From a phage, in sequence record PV730299.1: 64,000 bases of DNA, one strand, 5' to 3'. The position numbers and the translations under genes were made by a program. Below are positions 9,527-58,455 of this stretch, piece after piece; within the stretch, counting starts at the first letter, position 1; each line of letters begins with the position of its first letter. The notes under the pieces are model-generated. The model was given only the letters and a program-made list of their open reading frames with translations, ran no database searches and had not been told where the DNA came from.

Positions 9527-9880
9527 TTACGACAGCTGCTTCAGTTTGTAGATCGTCTGATAGCACAGTGTCTTGATATCGTCAAGAGTGCTCTGAAGGT
9601 GGGAGTCACACTGCTTGTAGATGCCATCGACGTCTATCACCACACTGTTAATATAGGAGATAGGGTCTGGGTTGTACAATTTGATATTCTCGAATGATGG
9701 AACATACTGACCACCCGCACCGATGTATGCTTCGGTAAACGTGTCCAGCAAGTCCTCTAGATCCCCGTAGAACTCCCCGAGTGCCTTGTGCTTGGCATAG
9801 GACGTTGTAACGAAGTGTAAGGCATGAGAGTGGGCTATAGCAAGCAGTCCACGGTTGATGAAAATACTCGCATTGACCAT
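9527..9880 (-). CDS. hypothetical protein
   Basis: 117 aa from MVNASIF; the track start at 9940 reads through the upstream terminator hairpin; SD AAGGAAAC. Confidence 0.5.
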   Translation of the reverse strand: MVNASIFINRGLLAIAHSHALHFVTTSYAKHKALGEFYGDLEDLLDTFTEAYIGAGGQYVPSFENIKLYNPDPISYINSVVIDVDGIYKQCDSHLQSTLDDIKTLCYQTIYKLKQLS

Positions 9881-9974: not shown

Positions 9975-10544
9975 CTAGACAGGCTTAACACCGAGGAACT
10001 TGGCAATGTCAGCAGCCAGGTTTTTACCCTTGCTGATGTCGTGTTCTTTACCGCCGACAGTAACGATCACATACGGGTCATCTTCACCACCGAAGTTCAC
10101 GGTGATCGCCTTGCCGATGCCAGGGATGCCAGAGTATTCGAACTCAGTGCGACCACTCTTGCGAGACTTGCCAGCACCCAGTGCTTTACCGATCATCTTG
10201 TCCATGTTCGCCAGTTCCTGAGCATAGGATTCGGTCACTTGGCCTTTGTTGGCAGACTTGCCAAAGAAGAATTCGAAGCCGTCATGGACAGCAACGACTT
10301 CCTGACCTTGGGAGATACCGTGAGTCTGGTCTGGGGTCAGCTTCACCTTGATGGTGTTGCCGTTGGTTAACTCCAGGTTGTAGACATCCGCCTGATTGTC
10401 AGGGGTGATCTGGGTCACGGTAGCGCCGGAACACCACTGGGTGCCGTCAGCTTGCTTGGTGATGGATACGGTCTTACCTTGGACACCAGCGTGGGTCTGA
10501 GGTTTAGCGGCTTGTTCTTTAAAATATTCGATAAAAGGTTTCAT
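9975..10544 (-). CDS. hypothetical protein, probably late-expressed
   Basis: 189 aa; SD GAGGAGAGA; TATAAATA about 25 nt upstream of ATG. Confidence 0.55.
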   Translation of the reverse strand: MKPFIEYFKEQAAKPQTHAGVQGKTVSITKQADGTQWCSGATVTQITPDNQADVYNLELTNGNTIKVKLTPDQTHGISQGQEVVAVHDGFEFFFGKSANKGQVTESYAQELANMDKMIGKALGAGKSRKSGRTEFEYSGIPGIGKAITVNFGGEDDPYVIVTVGGKEHDISKGKNLAADIAKFLGVKPV

Positions 10545-10569: not shown

Positions 10570-10577
10570 TATTTATA
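10570..10577 (-). promoter_or_regulatory. T4-type late promoter core TATAAATA
   Basis: Exact TATAAATA on the minus strand immediately after the terminator hairpin of the upstream gene. Confidence 0.45.
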
Positions 10578-10601
10578 AGCCCCCGAAGGGGCTTTCGATG
10601 A

Positions 10602-13562
10602 TCAGATCTTAATCTGCATGTTGCCACCCAGGGACTGCTCGTACTCGCTGTATGCGCCTTCCCCGTAGTCTCGTGCCCACTGGTCAGACTGCTGGGCACT
10701 ATCCAGAGTCATCAGGTTTGGTTCAGTCGGGTTGTAACCCTTGGACTTCGCATCCCGGTACAGAGTCTGCAGGTACTGGTTGGCGCGGTCAATCTGAGCT
10801 TTGAACTCGCGATATGCCCCTTCAGTTGTGTTGCGGCGGAAGGTGATATCCCAGTCCACGTTCAGAGTCTGACCATCACGGCTTGCATAGATCTGCCAAT
10901 CCAGGTCGCGACCTTTTGGTGCGTTGTCGCGGATGGAGTCGGCGTATGCCGCAAGGTCGTCCTTCGGATTGTGCGACGTGCTTTTCAGAAGTAGTGCATG
11001 ACCCATACCACCGTTTGACTGAAGAGACCATTTTCCTGTTTCTCTTCCCAGGCGTTCTATGTTGTTGAGTTGGTTTATCGACAATTCAGAAGAGTCAAAT
11101 AATACCACATCACGTTTTTTGGGGGTTCTCACATAAGGGGTGAGATCAATGTCGATCATCCGGTTTATAAATTCTACCACTTCAGCTTGTTTCTTTGGCA
11201 ATGTGGTATTGATATCCGGCGTGTTTGCTACTTTCTCCAGGCGTTTGTTTTCTGCGCTTATCATGGATAGCATAATTTGTGTAACTTTGCCGTCAGACAA
11301 GTTGTAATCATTCCAAATCACTTCACCTTTATCCGTGATGGTTATATCGTTCAAGAACACCTGGTTTGGGTTGTATGACTGACTTTTCAACTGTTGGAGG
11401 TTTCTGGAAAGATATTCCATTTTTGATGAAATCTCATCAATCACACTCTGGACCATATCTTTGTTTAAAGGAAGTTCATATGTCTTTGGATTGTTCAGGG
11501 TACGCCCTTTCTGAGAGACAATTGGGGTGAATGCAACTTTACCTTTGTCGTAGTAATAGGTCACGTTGGTTATCATAGAAGCACCGGCGTATTTTCCCGT
11601 TTCGGGGAAATTGACATCCCACCGAATGGACATACCGTTGACAGTCTCACCAAACACCATGGCGTTGCGTGGCATCTTCAGGGTTCCAGAGTTGACCAGA
11701 TCATCGCCTTGGGCATTCAGGTCGATAGAACCATAGATGGCCCCGGTAATACGATCTTTCAGCATCAGGGTCTTGTCGCCCTTCTCTGGGATGATTTCCA
11801 GCGGGTGCTTGCCACGCGGAGGCTCTTTGATGAGTTCCAGCAGAGCAGTGTTCCCAGGCTTCACACGATTCAGGACAGCGTCTGACACTGTCAGAGTCCA
11901 GTTTGCGGTTTCTACATAACCCCAGCCCCGAGAACGGCGAATGGCTTTGATAGGGTATGGAGCGCTTGTTGGCACTGCGCTAATTTCCCATTTCCCAGTG
12001 TACTGGGTCTTGGCAACCTCAAAGATGGACGCAATTACCGCATTGGCGACGTCACGGGCGCTGCCTTTGGCCACGTTCTCCTCTTCAGCAATTTCGCTGA
12101 AAACTGAGTATTGAATGAAACCAGCGAGGACGTTTGTGAAGTTGACAACGATAACCAACCCGCCTGCCGTCGTGTAACGACCAGCGCCCACACGACGGAT
12201 GTTCTCACCAGGAAGAATAGAAGTGTCCAGCCCAACGTTGGTATCAATGATACCCAGAACACGAGCGATGAAACCGCTGTCACGTAATTGATCAACACTG
12301 GTTGCACCCTCGGTCGAATCCGATGCGGATTTAGACACTTTGTTCAACTTGATAGAGACAAGGGTTTCCCCGTTGACACCGATGATATCCCATTCAGTAC
12401 CCTGCTCGTTCGAGATGCGGGCAATCTTGCGCTTTGAATTGATGGCACCTTCGTAACGCCCGTTTTTGACCACAACAGAGGCAGTGGCAGCATCAGTCGC
12501 ACTTGCTGCATTTGAAAAGTCTGGGTCGGAAATACTGATGTCGACGTCACCGTTTTGAGAACGCATGCGAACACCGTTTTTGAATCGTTCCACGTTTACT
12601 TCTCGAGCACCAAGTCGTTTGGCATCAATAACAGCAGTTCCAGAACCGATAATGTTGGCTGGGTTATTTCTGTCTGAACTGTTTTGAGAACCTTTCCAAA
12701 ATTTTGTGGACGCCGTGGTGAAATCATTCAGGATACTGATAGGGACTTGCGGTAATTTCAACTGACGAGCAATGAAATCAGCACTTTGCCCACGCACAGG
12801 TTTCTCATTCATGTATGCGCCAACATACACACCCGGCTCATTGTAGTGGGGAGCGATATTTGCCGTGTTCATGCGGCCTCTCTCCTTACCAGCCCATAAC
12901 AACATGGGCTGATCCCCGTTTGAAGTCAATTTCCATCCGTTGGAATTATCAGCAGAAGATGACACACCCACATCCGGAGTATTGTTCTGAACCGGAACGT
13001 CACCGACCTTGTCTGGATCATCCCAGGTGATACCCTGCATCTTCGGACCGTCGAATACCTGAGCCGGATCTTTACCCTTGCGGACCAGCCACACATAACC
13101 ACGGTCAGGGACAGGCGCGTAGGTCAGGTCCATGACATTCAGTTTCTGTTTCAGGCCGGACTGGCGGATGATCTTAGGAATCAGGGTCATACCGCGATCC
13201 AGCGCTTTCTTAGAGAAGTTGACAGCAAAGCCATCGATGGTCTTGCCCAGAGGAGTCGCCATGAATTGTTTGGTCGCTTCGATCATGGAAGCGATAACGC
13301 GCATTGGGTTCTTGAAGCGAGCGATGGCGTCAGGATAGACGGAGCCGCGCTTCTGGCCGATGAAAACCTGACGAACGCTCTTGCCCAGCCCCTGAGGGGT
13401 ATAGAACTGAATACGGTATTCCTTTTCATCTTCGTCGATGAAGGTGAAGAACACATCGCCTGCGTTCTTCTTACCCATGGTCAGCTCATACGGAGCGGAG
13501 TTGAACGCTTCGTCCAACTGATCTCTTTCCTGCATGAACTGGAGGAAACTTAGCTTTGACAT
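10602..13562 (-). CDS. large hypothetical protein (986 aa), possibly virion-associated
   Basis: Uninterrupted 986-aa ORF with strong SD AGGAGATATAAA-ATG; CTAATTAGAA motif upstream as for gp19 and portal; no family recognised by eye. Confidence 0.7.
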   Translation of the reverse strand: MSKLSFLQFMQERDQLDEAFNSAPYELTMGKKNAGDVFFTFIDEDEKEYRIQFYTPQGLGKSVRQVFIGQKRGSVYPDAIARFKNPMRVIASMIEATKQFMATPLGKTIDGFAVNFSKKALDRGMTLIPKIIRQSGLKQKLNVMDLTYAPVPDRGYVWLVRKGKDPAQVFDGPKMQGITWDDPDKVGDVPVQNNTPDVGVSSSADNSNGWKLTSNGDQPMLLWAGKERGRMNTANIAPHYNEPGVYVGAYMNEKPVRGQSADFIARQLKLPQVPISILNDFTTASTKFWKGSQNSSDRNNPANIIGSGTAVIDAKRLGAREVNVERFKNGVRMRSQNGDVDISISDPDFSNAASATDAATASVVVKNGRYEGAINSKRKIARISNEQGTEWDIIGVNGETLVSIKLNKVSKSASDSTEGATSVDQLRDSGFIARVLGIIDTNVGLDTSILPGENIRRVGAGRYTTAGGLVIVVNFTNVLAGFIQYSVFSEIAEEENVAKGSARDVANAVIASIFEVAKTQYTGKWEISAVPTSAPYPIKAIRRSRGWGYVETANWTLTVSDAVLNRVKPGNTALLELIKEPPRGKHPLEIIPEKGDKTLMLKDRITGAIYGSIDLNAQGDDLVNSGTLKMPRNAMVFGETVNGMSIRWDVNFPETGKYAGASMITNVTYYYDKGKVAFTPIVSQKGRTLNNPKTYELPLNKDMVQSVIDEISSKMEYLSRNLQQLKSQSYNPNQVFLNDITITDKGEVIWNDYNLSDGKVTQIMLSMISAENKRLEKVANTPDINTTLPKKQAEVVEFINRMIDIDLTPYVRTPKKRDVVLFDSSELSINQLNNIERLGRETGKWSLQSNGGMGHALLLKSTSHNPKDDLAAYADSIRDNAPKGRDLDWQIYASRDGQTLNVDWDITFRRNTTEGAYREFKAQIDRANQYLQTLYRDAKSKGYNPTEPNLMTLDSAQQSDQWARDYGEGAYSEYEQSLGGNMQIKI

Positions 13563-13637
13563 TTTATATCTCCTGACTGAATTAATGGCGGTTTCTTCTA
13601 ATTAGCGAAACCAAAAGGGAGCGTCAGCCCCCTTATC

Positions 13638-14319: not shown

Positions 14320-14348
14320 AGTATAGGGAAGGATATTGAAGAAGTAAA
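14320..14348 (-). promoter_or_regulatory. sigma70-like early promoter (TTTACT-N17-TATACT) with conserved leader
   Basis: Minus-strand TTTACTTCTTCAATATCCTTCCCTATACTTCATTCCATAAGCAGTAC; the run TATACTTCATTCCATAAGCAGTAC is identical at 51160-51188. Confidence 0.55.
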
Positions 14349-14378
14349 GGGGCGAAAGCCCCTTTTATTGAATTATTT

Positions 14379-15017
14379 TTACGGCGTCGGATTCGCAACC
14401 GGAATGTGGGATCGAATACCTGCGATGATATCCTTCAGCTGTGGTTTCCAGCCATTTACCAAACGGGGGAGAGCGATAGCGCCAGGCTGGACCAAAATGA
14501 TGTCGCTGCCTGTGATATTGTGCTGAGGGAACTGGGCAAGGTACTGCTCCATGGTGACACCCTCATCAATCAGAACCGCACCGACGTCAGACGATGCGTA
14601 GGTTGCACCCAGACCGTCAACGCCCCACGCCAAAATACCCCAGTCAGGGATGTTGGCTTCAGATGTGATGGTGAATCCAAACACGGTGTTCAGTGAGGTA
14701 AAGGAATAGACATCGTGGGTGAGGTCATACACCAGATACCCCTTGGCCAGCATATCGGCAAAGATCGCGTCCGTATCGCCTGCAGCCGGAGTCGGTACAG
14801 TAAACAACAACTCGCCCTCAGGAGGGGCAGGATACGTACCGAGGGCATAGAGGCACCATGCGTCAATACACTTCTTGATAAATGCCTCCGGTGCGACATA
14901 ATCAGCAAGGCGAACCGTGCCTGAGTACTCGGATACGATGATGCCTTCCTTCGCACCCTGTAGAGCAATGAAGACCAAGATATGTTCATATCCGGCCTGA
15001 GATGGAGTGATGTTCAT
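14379..15017 (-). CDS. hypothetical protein
   Basis: 212 aa from MNITPSQ with SD GAGGA; the track start at 15113 overlaps the upstream gene. Confidence 0.55.
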   Translation of the reverse strand: MNITPSQAGYEHILVFIALQGAKEGIIVSEYSGTVRLADYVAPEAFIKKCIDAWCLYALGTYPAPPEGELLFTVPTPAAGDTDAIFADMLAKGYLVYDLTHDVYSFTSLNTVFGFTITSEANIPDWGILAWGVDGLGATYASSDVGAVLIDEGVTMEQYLAQFPQHNITGSDIILVQPGAIALPRLVNGWKPQLKDIIAGIRSHIPVANPTP

Positions 15018-15631
15018 TATCTTGTCCTCTTCAGTTTCTCTATCGTGTGCTTGTTCATGGCGATCACCCGAGGATCTACCTCGGAGATGGTCCGGCCTTT
15101 GAAGGACACACATTTCTGAAGATATTTAGCTTTCTTCACGACGTCAGCGGCATAAGCGTTCGATGCAGGATTACGGGCAAAGCCAGCATTGTAAGAGGAG
15201 AGGGATTTGCGGATATTCTGATTGTGATAGGTCAGCCAGAACTGCATCTCATCGAGGGCGGCTTGCGCGGCATATTCTTGGTCGGTCAGCAACTTTATGG
15301 CGACATTGGCATAGCACTTGCGATTCTTACAACCTTCGCGATCACCAACTGTCTTCACCTTGTTCTGAAAGGCTCCCATGTTGGCCGCCTTGAGGCCGTA
15401 TCGCATTGACACTACATCTTCACCAGCGCGGCTCTCTCGCCAAGATATGGCGGCCAGAGTGTAGCCAAGATCTTGTGTCTTGCCTACGTGATAGGCGGTT
15501 GCCATCGTATTAAGTTGTTGCTCGGAGAAATTATAATCACATTGGGTGGTACTTTGGGAAGCGTGCACATTCCCGCTGGCAATGGTAAAGGTCACGGACA
15601 AGGCCATGGCCTTCAACGTTGTCATCGTCAT
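15017..15631 (-). CDS. secreted lytic transglycosylase-like protein (SLT domain)
   Basis: N-terminal signal peptide MTMTTLKAMALSVTFTIASGNVHA; catalytic-region motifs ISWRESRAG and YNAG as in SLT/IagB-family transglycosylases. Confidence 0.6.
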   Translation of the reverse strand: MTMTTLKAMALSVTFTIASGNVHASQSTTQCDYNFSEQQLNTMATAYHVGKTQDLGYTLAAISWRESRAGEDVVSMRYGLKAANMGAFQNKVKTVGDREGCKNRKCYANVAIKLLTDQEYAAQAALDEMQFWLTYHNQNIRKSLSSYNAGFARNPASNAYAADVVKKAKYLQKCVSFKGRTISEVDPRVIAMNKHTIEKLKRTR

Positions 15632-53247: not shown

Positions 53248-54579
53248 TTAGAACAGGCCTTTGATCAGCCCTTTACGGAAATACACGTTGGTGTCCTTGG
53301 CGATACCATCCGCAGTCACATAGACCTGTGGATCCTGGTTCGCTGGGATCTGAACGAATGGGTTAGCACAAATCCCGTAGCGGGTCTTGAACGCCATACG
53401 TGGTGCGAAGGTGGTTTCACCCTGGGTGCGGTACATTTCCAGCGGCACGTATGGCGCGAAGAAGATACCAGCATCCAGCGCGGTTGCACCTTTGTATGCC
53501 AGGGTGATGTATTCTGCTACTGCATACGGGTCGATATAGACACGCATACCGTTAGACAGCACACCAGCGAAGGTCTGACCAGTCGGATCAATCGCCAGCT
53601 TGGTGTTTTCCTGCAGCGCCGGAGCATAATCCAGCATGCCGGACATCGCCAGAGCGGATGCTACGTTCGGAGAGCACAGAACACGGTTGCCTTTACCACG
53701 ACGGGTGTCAACACCGATGCCGTTCGCTTCAACTTCCAGCATGAAAGTCATGTACTTCCATTTTTCCAGCGCCCAACGACCGGAGATGTCAGTGGAGATA
53801 TCTACGATACCGTTGGTGCCGAATTTTTTGAAGCGTACTGCGCTGAAGTTCATGGTGCGGATAAACTCACGGTTCATCTCTGCCTGAATTTCAGTTACCA
53901 TCACGTCGGACAGGATGCTGTCAACGTCTTCGCCGTGGATCGCCATCATGTCCTGGCGCAGTTCGTGGCTGTAGTCAGCGTACAGGCCGCGAGACTTCGC
54001 AGTCACGGTTGCTTTCTGAACGGTGATACCAACACGTGCCCATGGGTTGGTGGTGGTGCCCAGCAGTTCAGCGTCGGCAGTTGACATACCTTTACCGATG
54101 GTGGTGGTAGCAGCGCCGGAACCTTCGATCTCAGTCTGGGAGAAGCCAGATGGGTCGCCAGCCTGTGCAGTGTCGTCACCGGAGTAACCGGAGTTGGCTT
54201 CGTTCATGAACAGCTCAGCGCGGGACTGGGCAGTGTTGGAGCCGTCTGCAACACCCTGGCGAGCACGCAGTGCGAAGATCTGACCGTCAGGACCAGACAG
54301 CGGCTGAACGCCGAAGAAGTCCATCGCGATGTTGACCGGAGCCAGGCGTTTGGCCATGTCGATCAGGACTGGCTGCCATTTGCCCACAGAGGCGTTCACG
54401 GAGCCAGGAGCGTCGGATTCGCCCAGGTTTTTGGCGTTCCACTCAGCCTGGTTTTGCAGCAGACGGACGGCAACGTTTTCGGCAGAAAGCGGCTGGATGC
54501 TTTCAGATTCTTTCTGAAGAACTGGCAGCCACTGCTCGCGCATTTGTTCAGTAACAAGTTTCTTAGCCATGATGGTCAT
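53248..54579 (-). CDS. 23: major capsid protein, T4 gp23-like
   Basis: 443 aa; blocks FALRA, NPW, KSRGLYADYS, EMNREF, FAGVL, RVYIDPYA, YKGATALDAGIFFAPYVPL, FKTRYGI, NPF, YFRKGL are collinear with T4 gp23. Confidence 0.95.
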   Translation of the reverse strand: MTIMAKKLVTEQMREQWLPVLQKESESIQPLSAENVAVRLLQNQAEWNAKNLGESDAPGSVNASVGKWQPVLIDMAKRLAPVNIAMDFFGVQPLSGPDGQIFALRARQGVADGSNTAQSRAELFMNEANSGYSGDDTAQAGDPSGFSQTEIEGSGAATTTIGKGMSTADAELLGTTTNPWARVGITVQKATVTAKSRGLYADYSHELRQDMMAIHGEDVDSILSDVMVTEIQAEMNREFIRTMNFSAVRFKKFGTNGIVDISTDISGRWALEKWKYMTFMLEVEANGIGVDTRRGKGNRVLCSPNVASALAMSGMLDYAPALQENTKLAIDPTGQTFAGVLSNGMRVYIDPYAVAEYITLAYKGATALDAGIFFAPYVPLEMYRTQGETTFAPRMAFKTRYGICANPFVQIPANQDPQVYVTADGIAKDTNVYFRKGLIKGLF

Positions 54580-54661
54580 TCCTTACATTGATATTCAGTT
54601 AAGTTGAAATTACTTAGTAGTTCAAAATCAAGCCCCCTTTCGAGGGCTGTGGCTGCTAAAA

Positions 54662-55513
54662 TTAGCCGTTGATACCGAAGCGACGATTATAGTCGGCCAA
54701 CTGACGCTTGATAGATTCTTTCAGCTCTTTGTCTGTTTCATCTTCATCGTCATCTTCATCGCCTTCTTTCTTAGGCTTTTTGCCTTCGGCTTTAACATCT
54801 TTGTTGTCGTCATCGCCGTCTTTACCGCCGACTTTGTCCTGGAAGTCATCGTCATCGTCATCGCCTTCTTTCTTCACGGACTTACCTTCTACCAGGTTGC
54901 GGAAGGTGTGTACGCGGGAAGCGAATTCGCTTTCGGTGGTGAACTGCACCGCTTCCAGCAGATTGACAACCGTTGCTTTCTTGGTGTCGACCATACCTTC
55001 ACAGATACGGGCGATCACAGAGTCACGCAGAGTCGCATTCGCGGCTTCTTTGATTTGACGGTTTTCGCTTTCGGCAATCGCAGCACGTCGTTCTGCTTCG
55101 GTCAGGCGGGCAGTCAGCGCAGCGATCTGGCCGTTTTCGTCGGTGGCAAAGTTAATACCAGCTTCTTTCAGAACACCAGTCAGGCCAGTCAGCAGATTTT
55201 CAGCCGCTTCACGTTTGATCTGAGCATCGATTGCAGGAGCGTTTGTGTTAGCCCACTCTTCTACAACAGCATTCAGGAAGCCATCGACTTTGGTCGCGAT
55301 TTCCATCAAGTGAGACTCTTTCAGCTGAGCAATCTCAGCCTGATGAGCTTCAACCAGACGCAGGCGCTCAATGTTGGCAGCGTTTTCGGTTTCTTGAATA
55401 GCGGTCAGGCGAGCGGCTTCTACTTTAGATTCCAGCAGACCAGACACTTTATCCAGGAAGTCGGTGCTGAGGCCGTTAACGCCCTCAAACAGTTTTTGCA
55501 ATTCAGGTTTCAT
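54662..55513 (-). CDS. 22: prohead core scaffold protein, T4 gp22-like
   Basis: 283 aa coiled-coil-like protein with acidic/lysine-rich C-terminal tail, located between the gp21 and gp23 homologues as in T4. Confidence 0.8.
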   Translation of the reverse strand: MKPELQKLFEGVNGLSTDFLDKVSGLLESKVEAARLTAIQETENAANIERLRLVEAHQAEIAQLKESHLMEIATKVDGFLNAVVEEWANTNAPAIDAQIKREAAENLLTGLTGVLKEAGINFATDENGQIAALTARLTEAERRAAIAESENRQIKEAANATLRDSVIARICEGMVDTKKATVVNLLEAVQFTTESEFASRVHTFRNLVEGKSVKKEGDDDDDDFQDKVGGKDGDDDNKDVKAEGKKPKKEGDEDDDEDETDKELKESIKRQLADYNRRFGING

Positions 55514-55558
55514 GATTGTTTCCTTCTGAACGATTTTCAGTATTTAGTGAGGCTGAAT

Positions 55559-56227
55559 TCAGCCCAGATGTTTCAATGCGATATCGAGGCGGCGCAGGAA
55601 GTCGTCTTCTAACTGAATATTGGTTTTCACCAATGAATCGACCACATGCCCCTTAATGTCCTTAGGAACCCAAATTCCTGAAGATTCATCAAGCTGCCAT
55701 TCCACAGATTCGCTCACAGCCTTTACATAACAAACTTGTCCAGAAGGACGGTCGACTGCATCAACAGCAGTGAGCATAAAGCCGGGTTGAACGTCATCAT
55801 AGCCGTTCACTGACTTGGTCTCACCAAGGCCACGTGTAGACACGGCCAGGTTGAAGTCTGCTTCAGCCAGAGCACGAATGATCTGACCTTTCGGTGTATT
55901 CAGGATCCGCGCTCGACCGATAGCGTTGGTGCCTTCCCAGCGCAAAGATTCGGTTTTGAGTGCAGCGTGTTCGATATCGGGGAAAGGATAATCCGGATGC
56001 TTGAGTTCACCGATTGCACGACGATCCTGGATATACTCTTTGTCGTATGCTTCGACAGCAGGGATACCCACCTTTTGGAGATCGTAGTTGCGACCATTAC
56101 GGTTCACCTGGTTACACATCACGAATGGACCTTCGATGTACATGGCTTTGCCGCCAGTGACCGTGGCCGCTTCACCAATCTGAAGTTCTTTCCCTATCGC
56201 AGTGATCTCACGCAACAGTTTCATCAT
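55559..56227 (-). CDS. 21: prohead core protein/protease, T4 gp21-like
   Basis: 222 aa; position and overall similarity to T4 gp21 prohead protease. Confidence 0.8.
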   Translation of the reverse strand: MMKLLREITAIGKELQIGEAATVTGGKAMYIEGPFVMCNQVNRNGRNYDLQKVGIPAVEAYDKEYIQDRRAIGELKHPDYPFPDIEHAALKTESLRWEGTNAIGRARILNTPKGQIIRALAEADFNLAVSTRGLGETKSVNGYDDVQPGFMLTAVDAVDRPSGQVCYVKAVSESVEWQLDESSGIWVPKDIKGHVVDSLVKTNIQLEDDFLRRLDIALKHLG

Positions 56228-56234
56228 TCGCTCC

Positions 56235-56540
56235 TTAACTCAGCCCCATCATACGACGGAACTTCATTGCTTTTTTCTTACGACGCTCGATTTTGCGCTG
56301 ATATCCCATACCCATGCGTTTCTTGGCTCGGATCGCCTTGCGGTTGCCCAGCTTGCGGGTACGGCGCTCACTGGCGACCATCACCTCACAACGGGAACCA
56401 TCCGCAGACAGTTTGAAACCAGGAGCACACTGCAGACGGCGACGGCGTTTGCCTTTTGCGTTCACCTTGTCAATGACTTTCTGCTCATCCATGCGGGAAG
56501 CCAGGAAATCAGCGAACGTTGCAACTTCTTCGATTTCCAT
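56235..56540 (-). CDS. 68: prohead core protein, gp68-like (by position)
   Basis: 101-aa highly basic ORF between the gp67-like and gp21-like genes; SD GAGGAATGTATC-ATG. Confidence 0.5.
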   Translation of the reverse strand: MEIEEVATFADFLASRMDEQKVIDKVNAKGKRRRRLQCAPGFKLSADGSRCEVMVASERRTRKLGNRKAIRAKKRMGMGYQRKIERRKKKAMKFRRMMGLS

Positions 56541-56552
56541 GATACATTCCTC

Positions 56553-56723
56553 TTACTGGTCGTCGCCGAAAGGACCCATGTCTTGGCTCAGGGAGTTCAA
56601 GACATATTCAGTACCCTGCTGGACCAGTTCTTGGGCGCGAGCGGATAGCTCCATTTCGCATTCAGCAGCAGCGGCATCAGTATCACCGGCGATGATTGCT
56701 TTTACCAGATCGATAGCGGCCAT
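56553..56723 (-). CDS. 67: prohead core protein, gp67-like (by position)
   Basis: Small acidic protein immediately after the portal gene; start taken at MAAIDLV with SD AGAGGA; the track start at 56774 overlaps the portal gene. Confidence 0.45.
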   Translation of the reverse strand: MAAIDLVKAIIAGDTDAAAAECEMELSARAQELVQQGTEYVLNSLSQDMGPFGDDQ

Positions 56724-56760
56724 GTTCATATCCTCTAAATGTTTTCTATACTTAGTCGAA

Positions 56761-58455
56761 TTATTCTTCACCACCAGGAGGGTTAGTCGCTGGGATGACG
56801 TTAGGTCTGAATTTCAGTGGACTGACTTCCCCGCTGCCGAAGCCGCCGGACTCATCTGCCTGCACTTCAGGGTATTTGCCTTCTTTCTTCTCTTTCGCGA
56901 TCTTCTCTTGCTGGTCTTTGATGTCTTCATCGGACATACGCAGCAAATTGCGTTGAGCAAAATCGATAGAGAAGAGAGTGCCGATATATGGTTCGATCTG
57001 ACCGAGAGCCGCCATACGCTGTGACAAGATTTCGTTCTCTTGTTGTTCACGGATGAAGCTGTCAGAAGTGAATTCGAACTTGACGAACGGCTTGATCTTC
57101 TCATTCCAGTCAGCCTGATCTGTAATGCCTTTCAATATCAGTTGACGGCGCAGAAGTTCCAGGAAGATACCAGAAGAATAACGACGGCGCAGGCTCGCAC
57201 AGAACTTGTTGAAGCGCAGTTCTTCCTGTGTGATTTCAGCAAGATTGGAACCACCGATGTTGATGGAACCTTCCTCTTGCAGGCGGCTCTTAGGGATCAT
57301 CAGAGCCTCATAGAGTTTCTCGCGGAAGTATACCACATGATCCATTTGACCCAGTTGATCGCCACCGCCTACGTTGGAGATCTCGGTTGCGTTCTGTCCT
57401 TCGCGACGTGGTAGCCAGTAGTCCTCAGCGATACCCATCAAATGAGTGTTACCAGCCACCTTACCAGTGGTGCGATCATACGCCAGACGGTTCTTGAATT
57501 TGCCCATCATGGCTTGCATGTATTCTTCGGCCGACTTCTTACCCAGCGTACCCACGTCGAGATAGAACGCTCGCTTCTCAGGAGCACGTGTTATCGCATA
57601 GATCACCGTTGCATCTTCAGTTGTAACAAGGTTGTTCAGGGGACGGATAGCTGGGTTCAGCAGGCTGGGTACAACCCCATTCGCCAGAGGCTCTTCACCA
57701 CTGTCCAGATACACTATGCTCTCATCATCAAACACCAGCTCTTGCTGTGACGGTTGGAAGTTCTGAGACGTACCGGACTGGCCAGTGAATTGGTTGCGGT
57801 TGTAGTTCGGGTTGTAGTAGTATTGAAGTTTTACGTCATTGATGACTTCGATACCGTCGCGCATCGCCTTTTGAACGATGTATACAGGACGGATACAGCG
57901 TGAGTCCATCATGATGAGTTTGGCGATACCCGCTTTCTTGTTCTTCGGGTCCACTACAACGTGGAATGCCTGACGGCCTTCAATATACCATTTGCGGATC
58001 TTCTGATACGCCGTGTTGTCAAAGTCAAGGAGATGCATGATCTCTTTGAATGCGTCAGTGATCTTCTCTTTGACTTCGTCTGTGATGCCATCTACCTTTT
58101 CCAGGTTGATGGTTACAGGAGTCTCTTCCTCTTCACAAGTGACGACGTCGTTGACAATGATATCCACAGCCTTACGAATCTCAGGCTGCTGAGCCATAGA
58201 CTGGTACTCTTCGACCAGCTGTTTGACGTTGAGCAACTCATTCTCAACACCAACGAAATTGAATGTGTTCGCGCCGCCCTGGAGGATGATGGAACCATCC
58301 TGAGAATCGTCCAGCGCAACAACAGTCGCTTTTGAAAGCAACTTCTCTTCTTGGTTCGTGACCATCTTGTCGGTATCAATCGGCGCTTCTACTTTGCCGC
58401 CTCTGCCGAACAAGCCGAAGAACCCATTTCCGAATGCACCATTACCGAATGCCAT
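56761..58455 (-). CDS. 20: portal vertex protein, T4 gp20-like
   Basis: 564 aa; size and order (18-19-20-67-68-21-22-23) as in T4. Confidence 0.9.
   Translation of the reverse strand: MAFGNGAFGNGFFGLFGRGGKVEAPIDTDKMVTNQEEKLLSKATVVALDDSQDGSIILQGGANTFNFVGVENELLNVKQLVEEYQSMAQQPEIRKAVDIIVNDVVTCEEEETPVTINLEKVDGITDEVKEKITDAFKEIMHLLDFDNTAYQKIRKWYIEGRQAFHVVVDPKNKKAGIAKLIMMDSRCIRPVYIVQKAMRDGIEVINDVKLQYYYNPNYNRNQFTGQSGTSQNFQPSQQELVFDDESIVYLDSGEEPLANGVVPSLLNPAIRPLNNLVTTEDATVIYAITRAPEKRAFYLDVGTLGKKSAEEYMQAMMGKFKNRLAYDRTTGKVAGNTHLMGIAEDYWLPRREGQNATEISNVGGGDQLGQMDHVVYFREKLYEALMIPKSRLQEEGSINIGGSNLAEITQEELRFNKFCASLRRRYSSGIFLELLRRQLILKGITDQADWNEKIKPFVKFEFTSDSFIREQQENEILSQRMAALGQIEPYIGTLFSIDFAQRNLLRMSDEDIKDQQEKIAKEKKEGKYPEVQADESGGFGSGEVSPLKFRPNVIPATNPPGGEE

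Follow-up and report, generated by a model that had tools for sequence, protein, structure and literature searches.

The window analysed here, a 64,000-nucleotide stretch of phage DNA (sequence record PV730299.1), contains an ATG-started open reading frame (ORF) of 986 codons that is read from the minus strand at positions 10602..13562 and encodes a protein of 986 residues followed by a stop codon. No complete ORF in the window exceeds it in size, in agreement with the first-pass annotation (the runners-up encode 781 and 760 residues), and because it extends over 2.96 kb in DNA of about 50% GC it is a real gene and not a chance reading frame. The product has a computed mass of 109 kDa and a computed isoelectric point (pI) of 8.6, and its predicted mature form would have about 107 kDa. 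We found homologues in 357 phage records at E ≤ 1e-5 and in 271 protein clusters; the matching records belong nearly all to Ackermannviridae, with hosts in Salmonella, Klebsiella, Escherichia, Dickeya, Serratia, Erwinia and Vibrio, and the closest match, at 92.7% amino acid identity, was Escherichia phage vB_EcoM-ZQ1 (Ackermannviridae/Aglimvirinae). Judged from its sequence, the phage in the window is a ViI-like member of the Ackermannviridae, distinct from T4 proper. In relatives the gene is flanked by replication genes, with gp46/gp47 and a few small genes on one side and primase on the other; its earlier placement outside the conserved T4 core order agrees with this position, which is away from the head/tail block. 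In some deposited genomes the gene is represented by two or three overlapping ORFs (frameshifts or sequencing errors), as in Dickeya phage LIMEstone1 (ORF081/ORF082) and Shigella phage Ag3 (orf00109/110/110.1).

The absence of a domain recognisable by eye was borne out by the Pfam search, which returned zero matches even at E ≤ 1; at that threshold PF03496, the ADP-ribosyltransferase (ART) domain of T4 Alt, was also absent. The Pfam set searched excludes the PF26846 model, and T4 Alt itself gave only PF03496 there. In precomputed annotation the Pfam column is blank ('-') for the relatives listed, and Alt N-terminal fragments carry PF26846. The PHROG match, phrog_3867 (E = 0), is labelled 'unknown function', and the Vi01 homologue is annotated as 'phage associated protein'. 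Comparison with 70 family members and 1.84 billion cluster representatives gave the borders of the following modules (↓, putative protease cleavage site; pLDDT, predicted local distance difference test score).

13509..13562, minus strand: leader or predicted propeptide, residues 1-18 (MSKLSFLQFMQE followed by RDQLDE), with F-x-x-F-M-x-E and then L-x-E↓A-F
12993..13508, minus strand: Alt-type N-terminal domain (N-domain), residues 19-190, about 97% identical across enteric Ackermannviridae
12687..12950, minus strand: conserved small alpha+beta module, residues 205-292, from the family alignment and the model
12303..12677, minus strand: optional cassette, residues 296-420, in about half of the homologues but not in Salmonella phage Sajous1 gp214; modelled as beta-rich (pLDDT about 70-83)
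11205..12299, minus strand: central body, residues 422-786, in all homologues and divergent (35% identity to Sajous1 gp214)
10983..11201, minus strand: Ip9-like optional cassette, residues 788-860, in about 43-60% of the homologues
10605..10958, minus strand: acidic C-terminal domain (C-domain), residues 869-986, pI 4.7, ending ...GEGAYSEYEQSLGGNMQIKI, delimited by its recurrence across clusters

Other homologues carry extra cassettes of about 100 residues after residues 198/199, 295 and 861. The N-domain and modules 205-292 and 788-860 are basic (pI 9.2-9.6), and no internal repeats were found in the 986-residue protein. The full-length AlphaFold2 model consists of small globular alpha+beta modules arranged one after another; residues 1-206 had pLDDT below 50 in it, since the N-domains in the family multiple sequence alignment (MSA) are about 97% identical, and a diverse MSA solved this. 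The best Foldseek match of the full-length model in the PDB had E 2e-3 with TM below 0.1, and sequence-profile searches of the PDB with the N-domain and with the whole family gave nothing meaningful. We also considered a polyprotein cut into its modules by the prohead protease but found no support for it, as no [LIVMF]xE site occurs at the borders near residues 198, 295, 420, 787 and 868.

Residues 790-843 matched the mature part of Ip9 of phage IME08 with 44% identity over 54 residues (BLASTP, E 2e-12). IME08 Ip9 is an 'internal head protein' of the T-even ip locus and begins MKTYQEFIAE; the Ip9-like cassette also matched phrog_7673, 'internal head protein' (E 5e-10), and gave tblastn matches at T-even ip loci. 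The C-domain, with the end pattern ...G(D/E)SAYSEYEQSLGG..., is also the C-terminal part of about 45 clusters of mostly small proteins that are not otherwise related. The pattern [LIVMF]xE[ASMGQ] occurred within the first 20 residues in 21 of 42 C-domain proteins versus 9% of control windows (p = 4e-12), and examples of their leaders are MKTFKEFVKE↓S and MKLTxLxE↓MA, which resemble the capsid-targeting sequence (CTS) of T4.

Leader, N-terminal domain and T4 Alt

The N-domain starts about 80 clusters of 279-1439 residues, whose sequences diverge completely past the domain. In all of these clusters a variable leader of 1-45 residues precedes a near-invariant L/I-x-E↓A/S-F-N/D-S/T-x-P-Y; L/I/V/F/M occupies P3 in 76 of 79 N-domain proteins, E occupies P1 in 77 and A/S occupies P1' in 75.

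Both profile comparison and predicted fold indicate that the N-domain is homologous to the N-terminal region of Alt. A hidden Markov model (HMM) of the N-domain matched T4 Alt collinearly (E 3.4e-5 in a single comparison) and the N-terminal Alt protein of Salmonella phage Melville at E 9.6e-8, and hhalign gave an alignment of the N-domain with Alt that begins at residue 1 of Alt and spans 174 columns (E 0.002). A database search with the Alt N-terminus returned four proteins, which are too few for a strong profile on the Alt side. The AlphaFold2 model of the N-domain built from the diverse MSA had pLDDT 87 and a predicted TM-score of 0.78. When it was compared with BFVD by Foldseek, the matches following its own family included at least six Alt proteins (E 1e-6 to 9e-5, query TM-score 0.53-0.58), among them those of Aeromonas phiAS5, E. 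coli HY03, Shigella SP18, Citrobacter CF1 and Acinetobacter Henu6. This search also found the N-domain fused to deaminase, zeta-toxin and ParB/Srx domains; a GNAT-like resemblance of the fold appeared in one weak match (E 0.06).

Moreover, the same N-domain occurs together with the enzyme of Alt. PF03496 was present in 5 of 63 N-domain members, the ART domain of T4 Alt directly matched four members, and the proteins P0185 and P0196 matched PF03496. P0185 bridges the two groups, since its N-domain matches Ackermannviridae (E 1e-17) and its ART domain matches T-even Alt (E 3e-12), and its gene adjoins those for Gp23, T4_CASP, Peptidase_S77 and Portal_T4.

Two further arrangements were observed beside these. 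In an uncultured phage of the T4 superfamily (locus L014, 616-3968), the Gp23/scaffold/S77/portal block is adjoined by a pair of neighbouring genes, one for 580 residues with an Alt-type N-domain and an Alt-type ART and the next for 516 residues, the length of the N-domain protein P0180. In phage Melville (locus L015, 3001-5108) Alt is encoded by two genes, one for a 323-residue N-terminal protein (PF26846, start MLELNE↓VFDE) and one for a 365-residue ART protein (PF03496), which shows that carrier and enzyme are separable units.

In T4, the prohead protease removes 6 N-terminal residues from Alt at ITE-6 and 63 C-terminal residues at LTE-619 (PMC5694885). The hhalign alignments place I4-T5-E6 of Alt on L16-D17-E18 of the 986-residue protein, so that the predicted mature protein starts at A19 (AFNSAPYELT), and we infer that the protein would be cleaved after E18. 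In T4, a D in position P1 prevents processing while targeting is retained. The first 12 residues (MSKLSFLQFMQE) resemble the T4 CTS MKTYQEFIAE, with the F..FM.E spacing offset by 2 residues; in that CTS, positions 4 and 7 target the protein and positions 8 and 10 direct its processing (PMC9026906).

Virion proteomes, a deletion mutant and the gene neighbourhood

Sajous1 gp214 is a syntenic homologue, and its alignment with the 986-residue protein consists of three collinear blocks: an N-terminal one of 299 residues (74% identity), a central one of 367 (35%) and a C-terminal one of 118 (75%). In virions purified in caesium chloride it was detected with 196 spectra and was within the five most-represented gene products (PMC10892097), and its spectra per residue, calculated with approximate lengths, exceeded those of the portal and the sheath; the GenBank record labels it hypothetical. 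We cross-checked the Sajous1 numbering: gp215 ('molybdate-binding') and gp217 ('ferritin') match the weak-TOBE and DUF5856 genes beside the window gene. The neighbours gp211, gp215, gp216 and gp217 were likewise detected in virions (PMC10892097). In LIMEstone1 the N-domain lies in ORF082, which overlaps ORF081; both are 'confirmed structural proteins' (ORF081 with 23 unique peptides and 55% coverage), and the authors pointed to ORF78-85 as a cluster of structural proteins for which they had no explanation (PMC3296691). The proposal that the gene encodes a virion component is thus supported by published proteomics of its homologues. Both proteomes were obtained from whole virions, in which head and tail are not separable. 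We also sought the semi-tryptic AFNSAPYELTFGK peptide in the peptide-level table of Sajous1, and the part searched holds no gp214 peptides.

The homologue is deleted in GenBank record OL964746, 'Mutant Salmonella phage selz clone selz_8t1', which originates from a CRISPR genome-reduction study (PMC9825161). What remains of the deletion is an in-frame fusion of 114 residues, which joins residues 1-56 of the upstream 91-residue ORF to residues 924-986 of the large protein (L009 6001-6345 / L011). Since selz_8t1 is viable, the protein is dispensable for particle formation on the laboratory host. An identical fusion protein was found in an independent SRA assembly (L010).

The neighbouring genes and the head genes in the window are as follows.

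9527..9880, minus strand: 117-residue DUF5856 protein or 'starvation-inducible regulator', ferritin/Dps-like; homologues in virions are LIMEstone1 ORF078 and Sajous1 gp217
9975..10544, minus strand: 189-residue protein with the leader MKPFIEYFKE, a near-canonical T4 CTS (MKTYQEFIAE in T4/IME08)
14379..15017, minus strand: 212-residue DUF7270 protein, homologous to the confirmed structural protein ORF085 of LIMEstone1
15017..15631, minus strand: 204-residue protein whose N-terminal segment resembles a signal peptide and which weakly matches SLT lytic transglycosylase (E 4e-4)
53248..58455, minus strand: T4-type head module assigned by Pfam, with Gp23 capsid, gp22-like scaffold, S77 protease and gp20 portal (Portal_T4)
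54662..55513, minus strand: T4-type scaffold, T4_CASP (gp22-like; Pfam PF25623, E 1e-42), the putative docking partner in the prohead core
55559..56227, minus strand: T4-type prohead protease, Peptidase_S77 (gp21-type; Pfam PF03420, E 2e-29), the putative processing enzyme

As homologues detected in virions are spread across about 9.5-15.6 kb, this stretch looks like a cluster of virion-packaged accessory proteins amid replication genes. Within the window, a CTS-like leader at a genuine ORF start was found only in two adjacent genes, those for the 986-residue and the 189-residue proteins. Homologues of the latter were detected in virions as LIMEstone1 ORF080 (PMC3296691) and as Sajous1 gp215, with 32 spectra (PMC10892097), and it is probably a second internal head protein; both it and gp215 gave a weak TOBE/molybdate-binding match (E 0.0076) that falls under the Pfam cutoff. 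The next Sajous1 gene (L004 14659-14898) encodes gp216, an 80-residue virion protein with 20 spectra and the CTS-like start MKGFPDFLKE↓A; its counterpart is missing in the window, where the interval between the 189-residue and DUF5856 genes is only about 95 bp. Upstream of the DUF5856 gene we observed a hairpin, GGATCCCCC-TAAATAC-AGGGGGATTT, the loop of which contains the TAAATA that the LIMEstone1 authors named a late promoter. The relatives of the 204-residue protein are labelled 'RegB endoribonuclease', which looks like a mis-annotation; its Sajous1 homologue, gp211, was represented by 31 spectra in virions.

In T4, both Alt and the internal proteins (IPs) are incorporated in the core of the scaffold and processed by gp21; they are ejected along with the DNA, and neither is essential (PMC3012670, PMC9026906, PMC5694885). 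The capsid protein in the window has an N-terminal extension of about 64 residues, with NLGE↓S located about 10 residues before the Gp23 domain, which is consistent with L-x-E processing.

Signals around the gene

The following signals were found close to the gene.

10570..10577, minus strand: exact T4-type late promoter motif TATAAATA, which serves the downstream 189-residue gene and not the 986-residue ORF
10577..10594, minus strand: GC-rich hairpin AAGCCCC-TTCG-GGGGCTT, read from the sequence, directly past the stop codon and abutting the late-promoter motif
13569..13574, minus strand: Shine-Dalgarno sequence AGGAGA, read from the sequence
13615..13634, minus strand: terminator-like hairpin with an 8-bp stem, then TTGGTTT, between the upstream 111-residue gene and the 986-residue ORF

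The ATG is preceded by caGGAGAtataaaATG. Of the two upstream signals described in the first-pass annotation, the strong Shine-Dalgarno sequence was found again, as AGGAGA 7 nt before the ATG, and the late-type motif had to be abandoned: TATAAAAT has two mismatches to the T4 late consensus TATAAATA and lies in the spacer between the Shine-Dalgarno sequence and the ATG, so that a transcript begun there would miss the start codon. Nor is it conserved, as its LIMEstone1 counterpart reads TACAAAAT (gatacaaaATG). The 75 bp upstream of the ORF contain no copy of TATAAATA at ≤1 mismatch. The sole exact copy of the region, at 10570-10577(-), is found past the 3' end of the gene, within the 57 bp that separate it from the next one (9975..10544); in LIMEstone1 the corresponding site carries a late promoter in the authors' annotation (PMC3296691).

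The nearest promoter-like site is sigma70-like (TTTACT-17-TATACT, 14348-14320(-)) and lies two small genes farther upstream; at the equivalent position the LIMEstone1 authors annotated a 'middle promoter' (PMC3296691). A transcript covering the 986-residue gene may start at this site, at about 14.33 kb. As an alternative to such read-through, an unrecognised promoter might lie in the conserved CGCTAATTA...CCAT element ahead of the ORF. The region 14320..14381 (minus strand) also contains a bidirectional GC hairpin (14343-14369), which is followed by the sigma70-like TTTACT-17-TATACT, and TAAAAATA just upstream. A literature search for an Ackermannviridae transcriptome or an AG3 proteome returned nothing usable.

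Interpretation and comparison with known systems

We interpret the 986-residue protein as a large (about 107 kDa when mature), abundant and non-essential internal head protein built on the chassis of T4 Alt, which would be targeted to the core, trimmed by the protease and ejected with a swappable cargo, and we give this interpretation a probability of about 0.68. An ejected internal protein, one of the two options named in the first-pass annotation, fits the sequence: the Alt-type N-domain with its LxE leader and the Ip9-like module occur in a phage whose window also encodes a T4-type protease and scaffold. The protein would be produced in time for prohead assembly, and its 18-residue leader and highly conserved Alt-type N-domain would dock it on the gp22-like scaffolding core. 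Once the shell is closed, the S77 prohead protease would cut after E18 (LDE↓AF), and perhaps after E12 too; the cut would free the protein inside the capsid, where DNA would then be packed around it. At infection the protein would exit through the tail together with the DNA, and its variable cargo (the optional cassettes including the Ip9-like one, the central body and the acidic C-domain) could act in the earliest phase of infection. T4 IPI* counteracts GmrSD, and by analogy the most plausible role of the cargo would be against host defences. Such a role is suggested by the IPI*/GmrSD analogy, by the mosaicism of the cassettes and by the effector domains that the same N-domain carries elsewhere; a mosaic make-up of cassettes is typical of arms-race cargo.

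Several observations weigh against this interpretation. The similarity to T4 Alt itself is weak: identity is about 20%, the score of the N-domain HMM against T4 Alt is 9.8 bits, and pairwise BLAST of the 986-residue protein against T4 Alt was not significant. The proteomes, being those of whole virions, do not distinguish a location in the head interior from one on the tail or neck. The gene is located among replication genes and has no late promoter directly upstream. In addition, a protein of 107 kDa is far above the size of classical IPs and would have to unfold to traverse the tail tube, and any activity of the cargo is a guess, because the cargo has neither a recognisable enzymatic or inhibitor domain nor a structural homologue.

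Other explanations account for part of these data. The protein could be a structural or morphogenetic component of the head core, similar to T4 IPIII, gp67 and gp68, which builds or sizes the prohead or condenses DNA and then stays or is passively expelled, with no effector role in the host. The same head-targeting features and the high copy number would be expected of such a component, and the basic N-domain and modules 205-292 and 788-860 could, from their composition, bind DNA; in the smallest-genome mutant, selz_497L, the burst decreased from 622 to 194 (PMC9825161), in a genome with many deletions, which may or may not include this gene. However, a mutant without the gene is viable, mosaicism at the level of cassettes and an embedded IP-type module are hard to reconcile with a purely architectural protein, and in other phages the same N-domain bears ART, deaminase, zeta-toxin and ParB/Srx effectors, so that we consider this explanation unlikely. 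Less probable still is a tail location. The Sajous1 authors proposed a 'tail completion protein' and a tail-borne iron/molybdate entry module of gp214-217, the 'Ferrojan horse' (PMC10892097), to which whole-virion mass spectrometry is blind, as it does not distinguish head from tail; the weak TOBE match of gp215 and the 189-residue protein (E 0.0076) and the ferritin/Dps-like DUF5856 neighbour are in line with their proposal. On the other hand, gp214 is hypothetical in GenBank and showed no match to the tail-completion (gp3/gp15) families in Pfam or PHROGs, the N-domain and LxE leader belong to the head-packaged Alt, gp215 and gp216 have T4-type CTS leaders, and the Sajous1 authors reported finding no TonB/FeoB dependence.

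A fibre, the second option of the first-pass annotation, or any other external adhesin such as a tailspike is very improbable, even if the protein is large, abundant in virions and mosaic like receptor-binding proteins. It has no fibrous or other internal repeats, and its model, composed of small globular alpha+beta modules, shows no beta-helix, coiled-coil or collagen-like segment. The tailspikes of Ackermannviridae come from a separate tsp cluster (PMC11721090), whereas this gene lies between gp46/47 and primase; conservation of the protein is highest in the N-terminal Alt-like domain with the protease-site leader, and the viability of the deletion mutant selz_8t1 speaks against an adhesin that is essential. 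We assign the lowest probability of all to the view that the protein is non-structural, serves replication or host takeover and enters virion preparations as a contaminant. The replication/recombination gene context and the lack of a late promoter immediately upstream speak for it, but the protein ranked among the top proteins of two independent virion proteomes from phages of different genera, its length-normalised counts exceeded those of the portal and sheath, and the T4 alt and ip genes likewise lie outside the head gene block.

The internal head protein reading can be extended, tentatively and with considerable doubt, to a general one: the Alt N-domain with its LxE leader might be a portable head-loading and injection chassis of T4-superfamily phages, similar to MuF, and the Ackermannviridae protein might be a polyvalent carrier of several small IP-like anti-defence modules (the Ip9-like one and the optional cassettes of about 100 residues) that are exchanged by recombination. 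If so, the cassettes would represent a set of so far uncharacterised inhibitors that are injected to counter host defences, perhaps adapted to systems attacking the hypermodified thymidine DNA of these phages.

Ackermannviridae are widely used in biocontrol and therapy, and a protein that ranks among the most abundant in their virions still bears the label 'hypothetical' or 'unknown structural protein'. Internal or ejected proteins are unmentioned in a 2024 review of the family (PMC11721090). Placing the protein on the Alt chassis predicts a concrete, testable route of assembly and delivery. At the same time, the Alt N-terminal region extends from an annotation limited to Tevenvirinae to a carrier domain in about 80 divergent clusters, whose cargo is ART, deaminase, zeta-toxin, ParB/Srx or unknown. 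The Alt N-terminal region thus appears to be a widespread carrier domain with a conserved protease-site leader, a statement that we did not find in the literature examined (including PMC11721090), though Pfam PF26846 covers the N-terminus of Tevenvirinae Alt. The N-domain gives a sequence handle for proteins injected before phage gene expression, and we suggest that the leader and N-domain could be used as a packaging tag for foreign proteins in Ackermannviridae heads, as the CTS is in T4.

Among the closest known systems is T4 Alt, a head-packaged and injected NAD+:arginine ADP-ribosyltransferase whose N-terminal region is Pfam PF26846 (Tevenvirinae_ADPRT). The two share the homologous N-terminal domain of about 170 residues, and to the short propeptide of Alt corresponds a predicted one that likewise ends in (L/I)-x-E; both genes are located outside the head block in a phage with an S77 protease and a gp22-type scaffold, and both are dispensable. 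In contrast to Alt, the 986-residue protein has about 800 residues of unrelated mosaic modules in place of the ART domain (PF03496, catalytic R-S-E), its leader has 18 residues with an extra CTS-like segment instead of 6 residues, and spectral counts suggest a copy number above the roughly 40 per head of Alt; because it has no ART domain, it is no Alt orthologue. With the T-even IPs (IPI, IPII, IPIII, Ip4-Ip13) it shares the homology of residues 788-860 to Ip9, a CTS-like though shifted leader spacing, a hypervariable, cassette-like evolution, the expected processing by the prohead protease and the adjoining 189-residue gene with its near-canonical CTS. However, IPs are single-module proteins of 8-20 kDa that are encoded separately, whereas here a 109-kDa protein has at least six modules and its embedded Ip9-like module has no leader of its own and no LxE site at its borders. 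Because of its size, the protein is no classical IP.

The polyvalent or MuF-fused effectors delivered from the head (Iyer et al. 2017, PMC5512222) likewise combine a conserved head-association domain with variable cargo that is delivered with the DNA. In the protein studied here the carrier is an Alt-type N-domain and not MuF, portal or DarA-N, and no catalogued effector domain was detectable in Pfam and PDB searches, whereas this class needs at least two. The giant phages phiKZ and SPN3US likewise carry large ejection proteins in their heads, which a prohead protease related to that of T4 trims at x-x-E motifs. These proteins differ in the cleavage consensus (S/A-x-E versus L/I-x-E) and in forming an inner body or bolus, and we found no sequence relationship to them. 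Taken together, these comparisons support the view that the loading of the 986-residue protein resembles that of Alt and the IPs, and that the protein is a variant of known head-packaged proteins.

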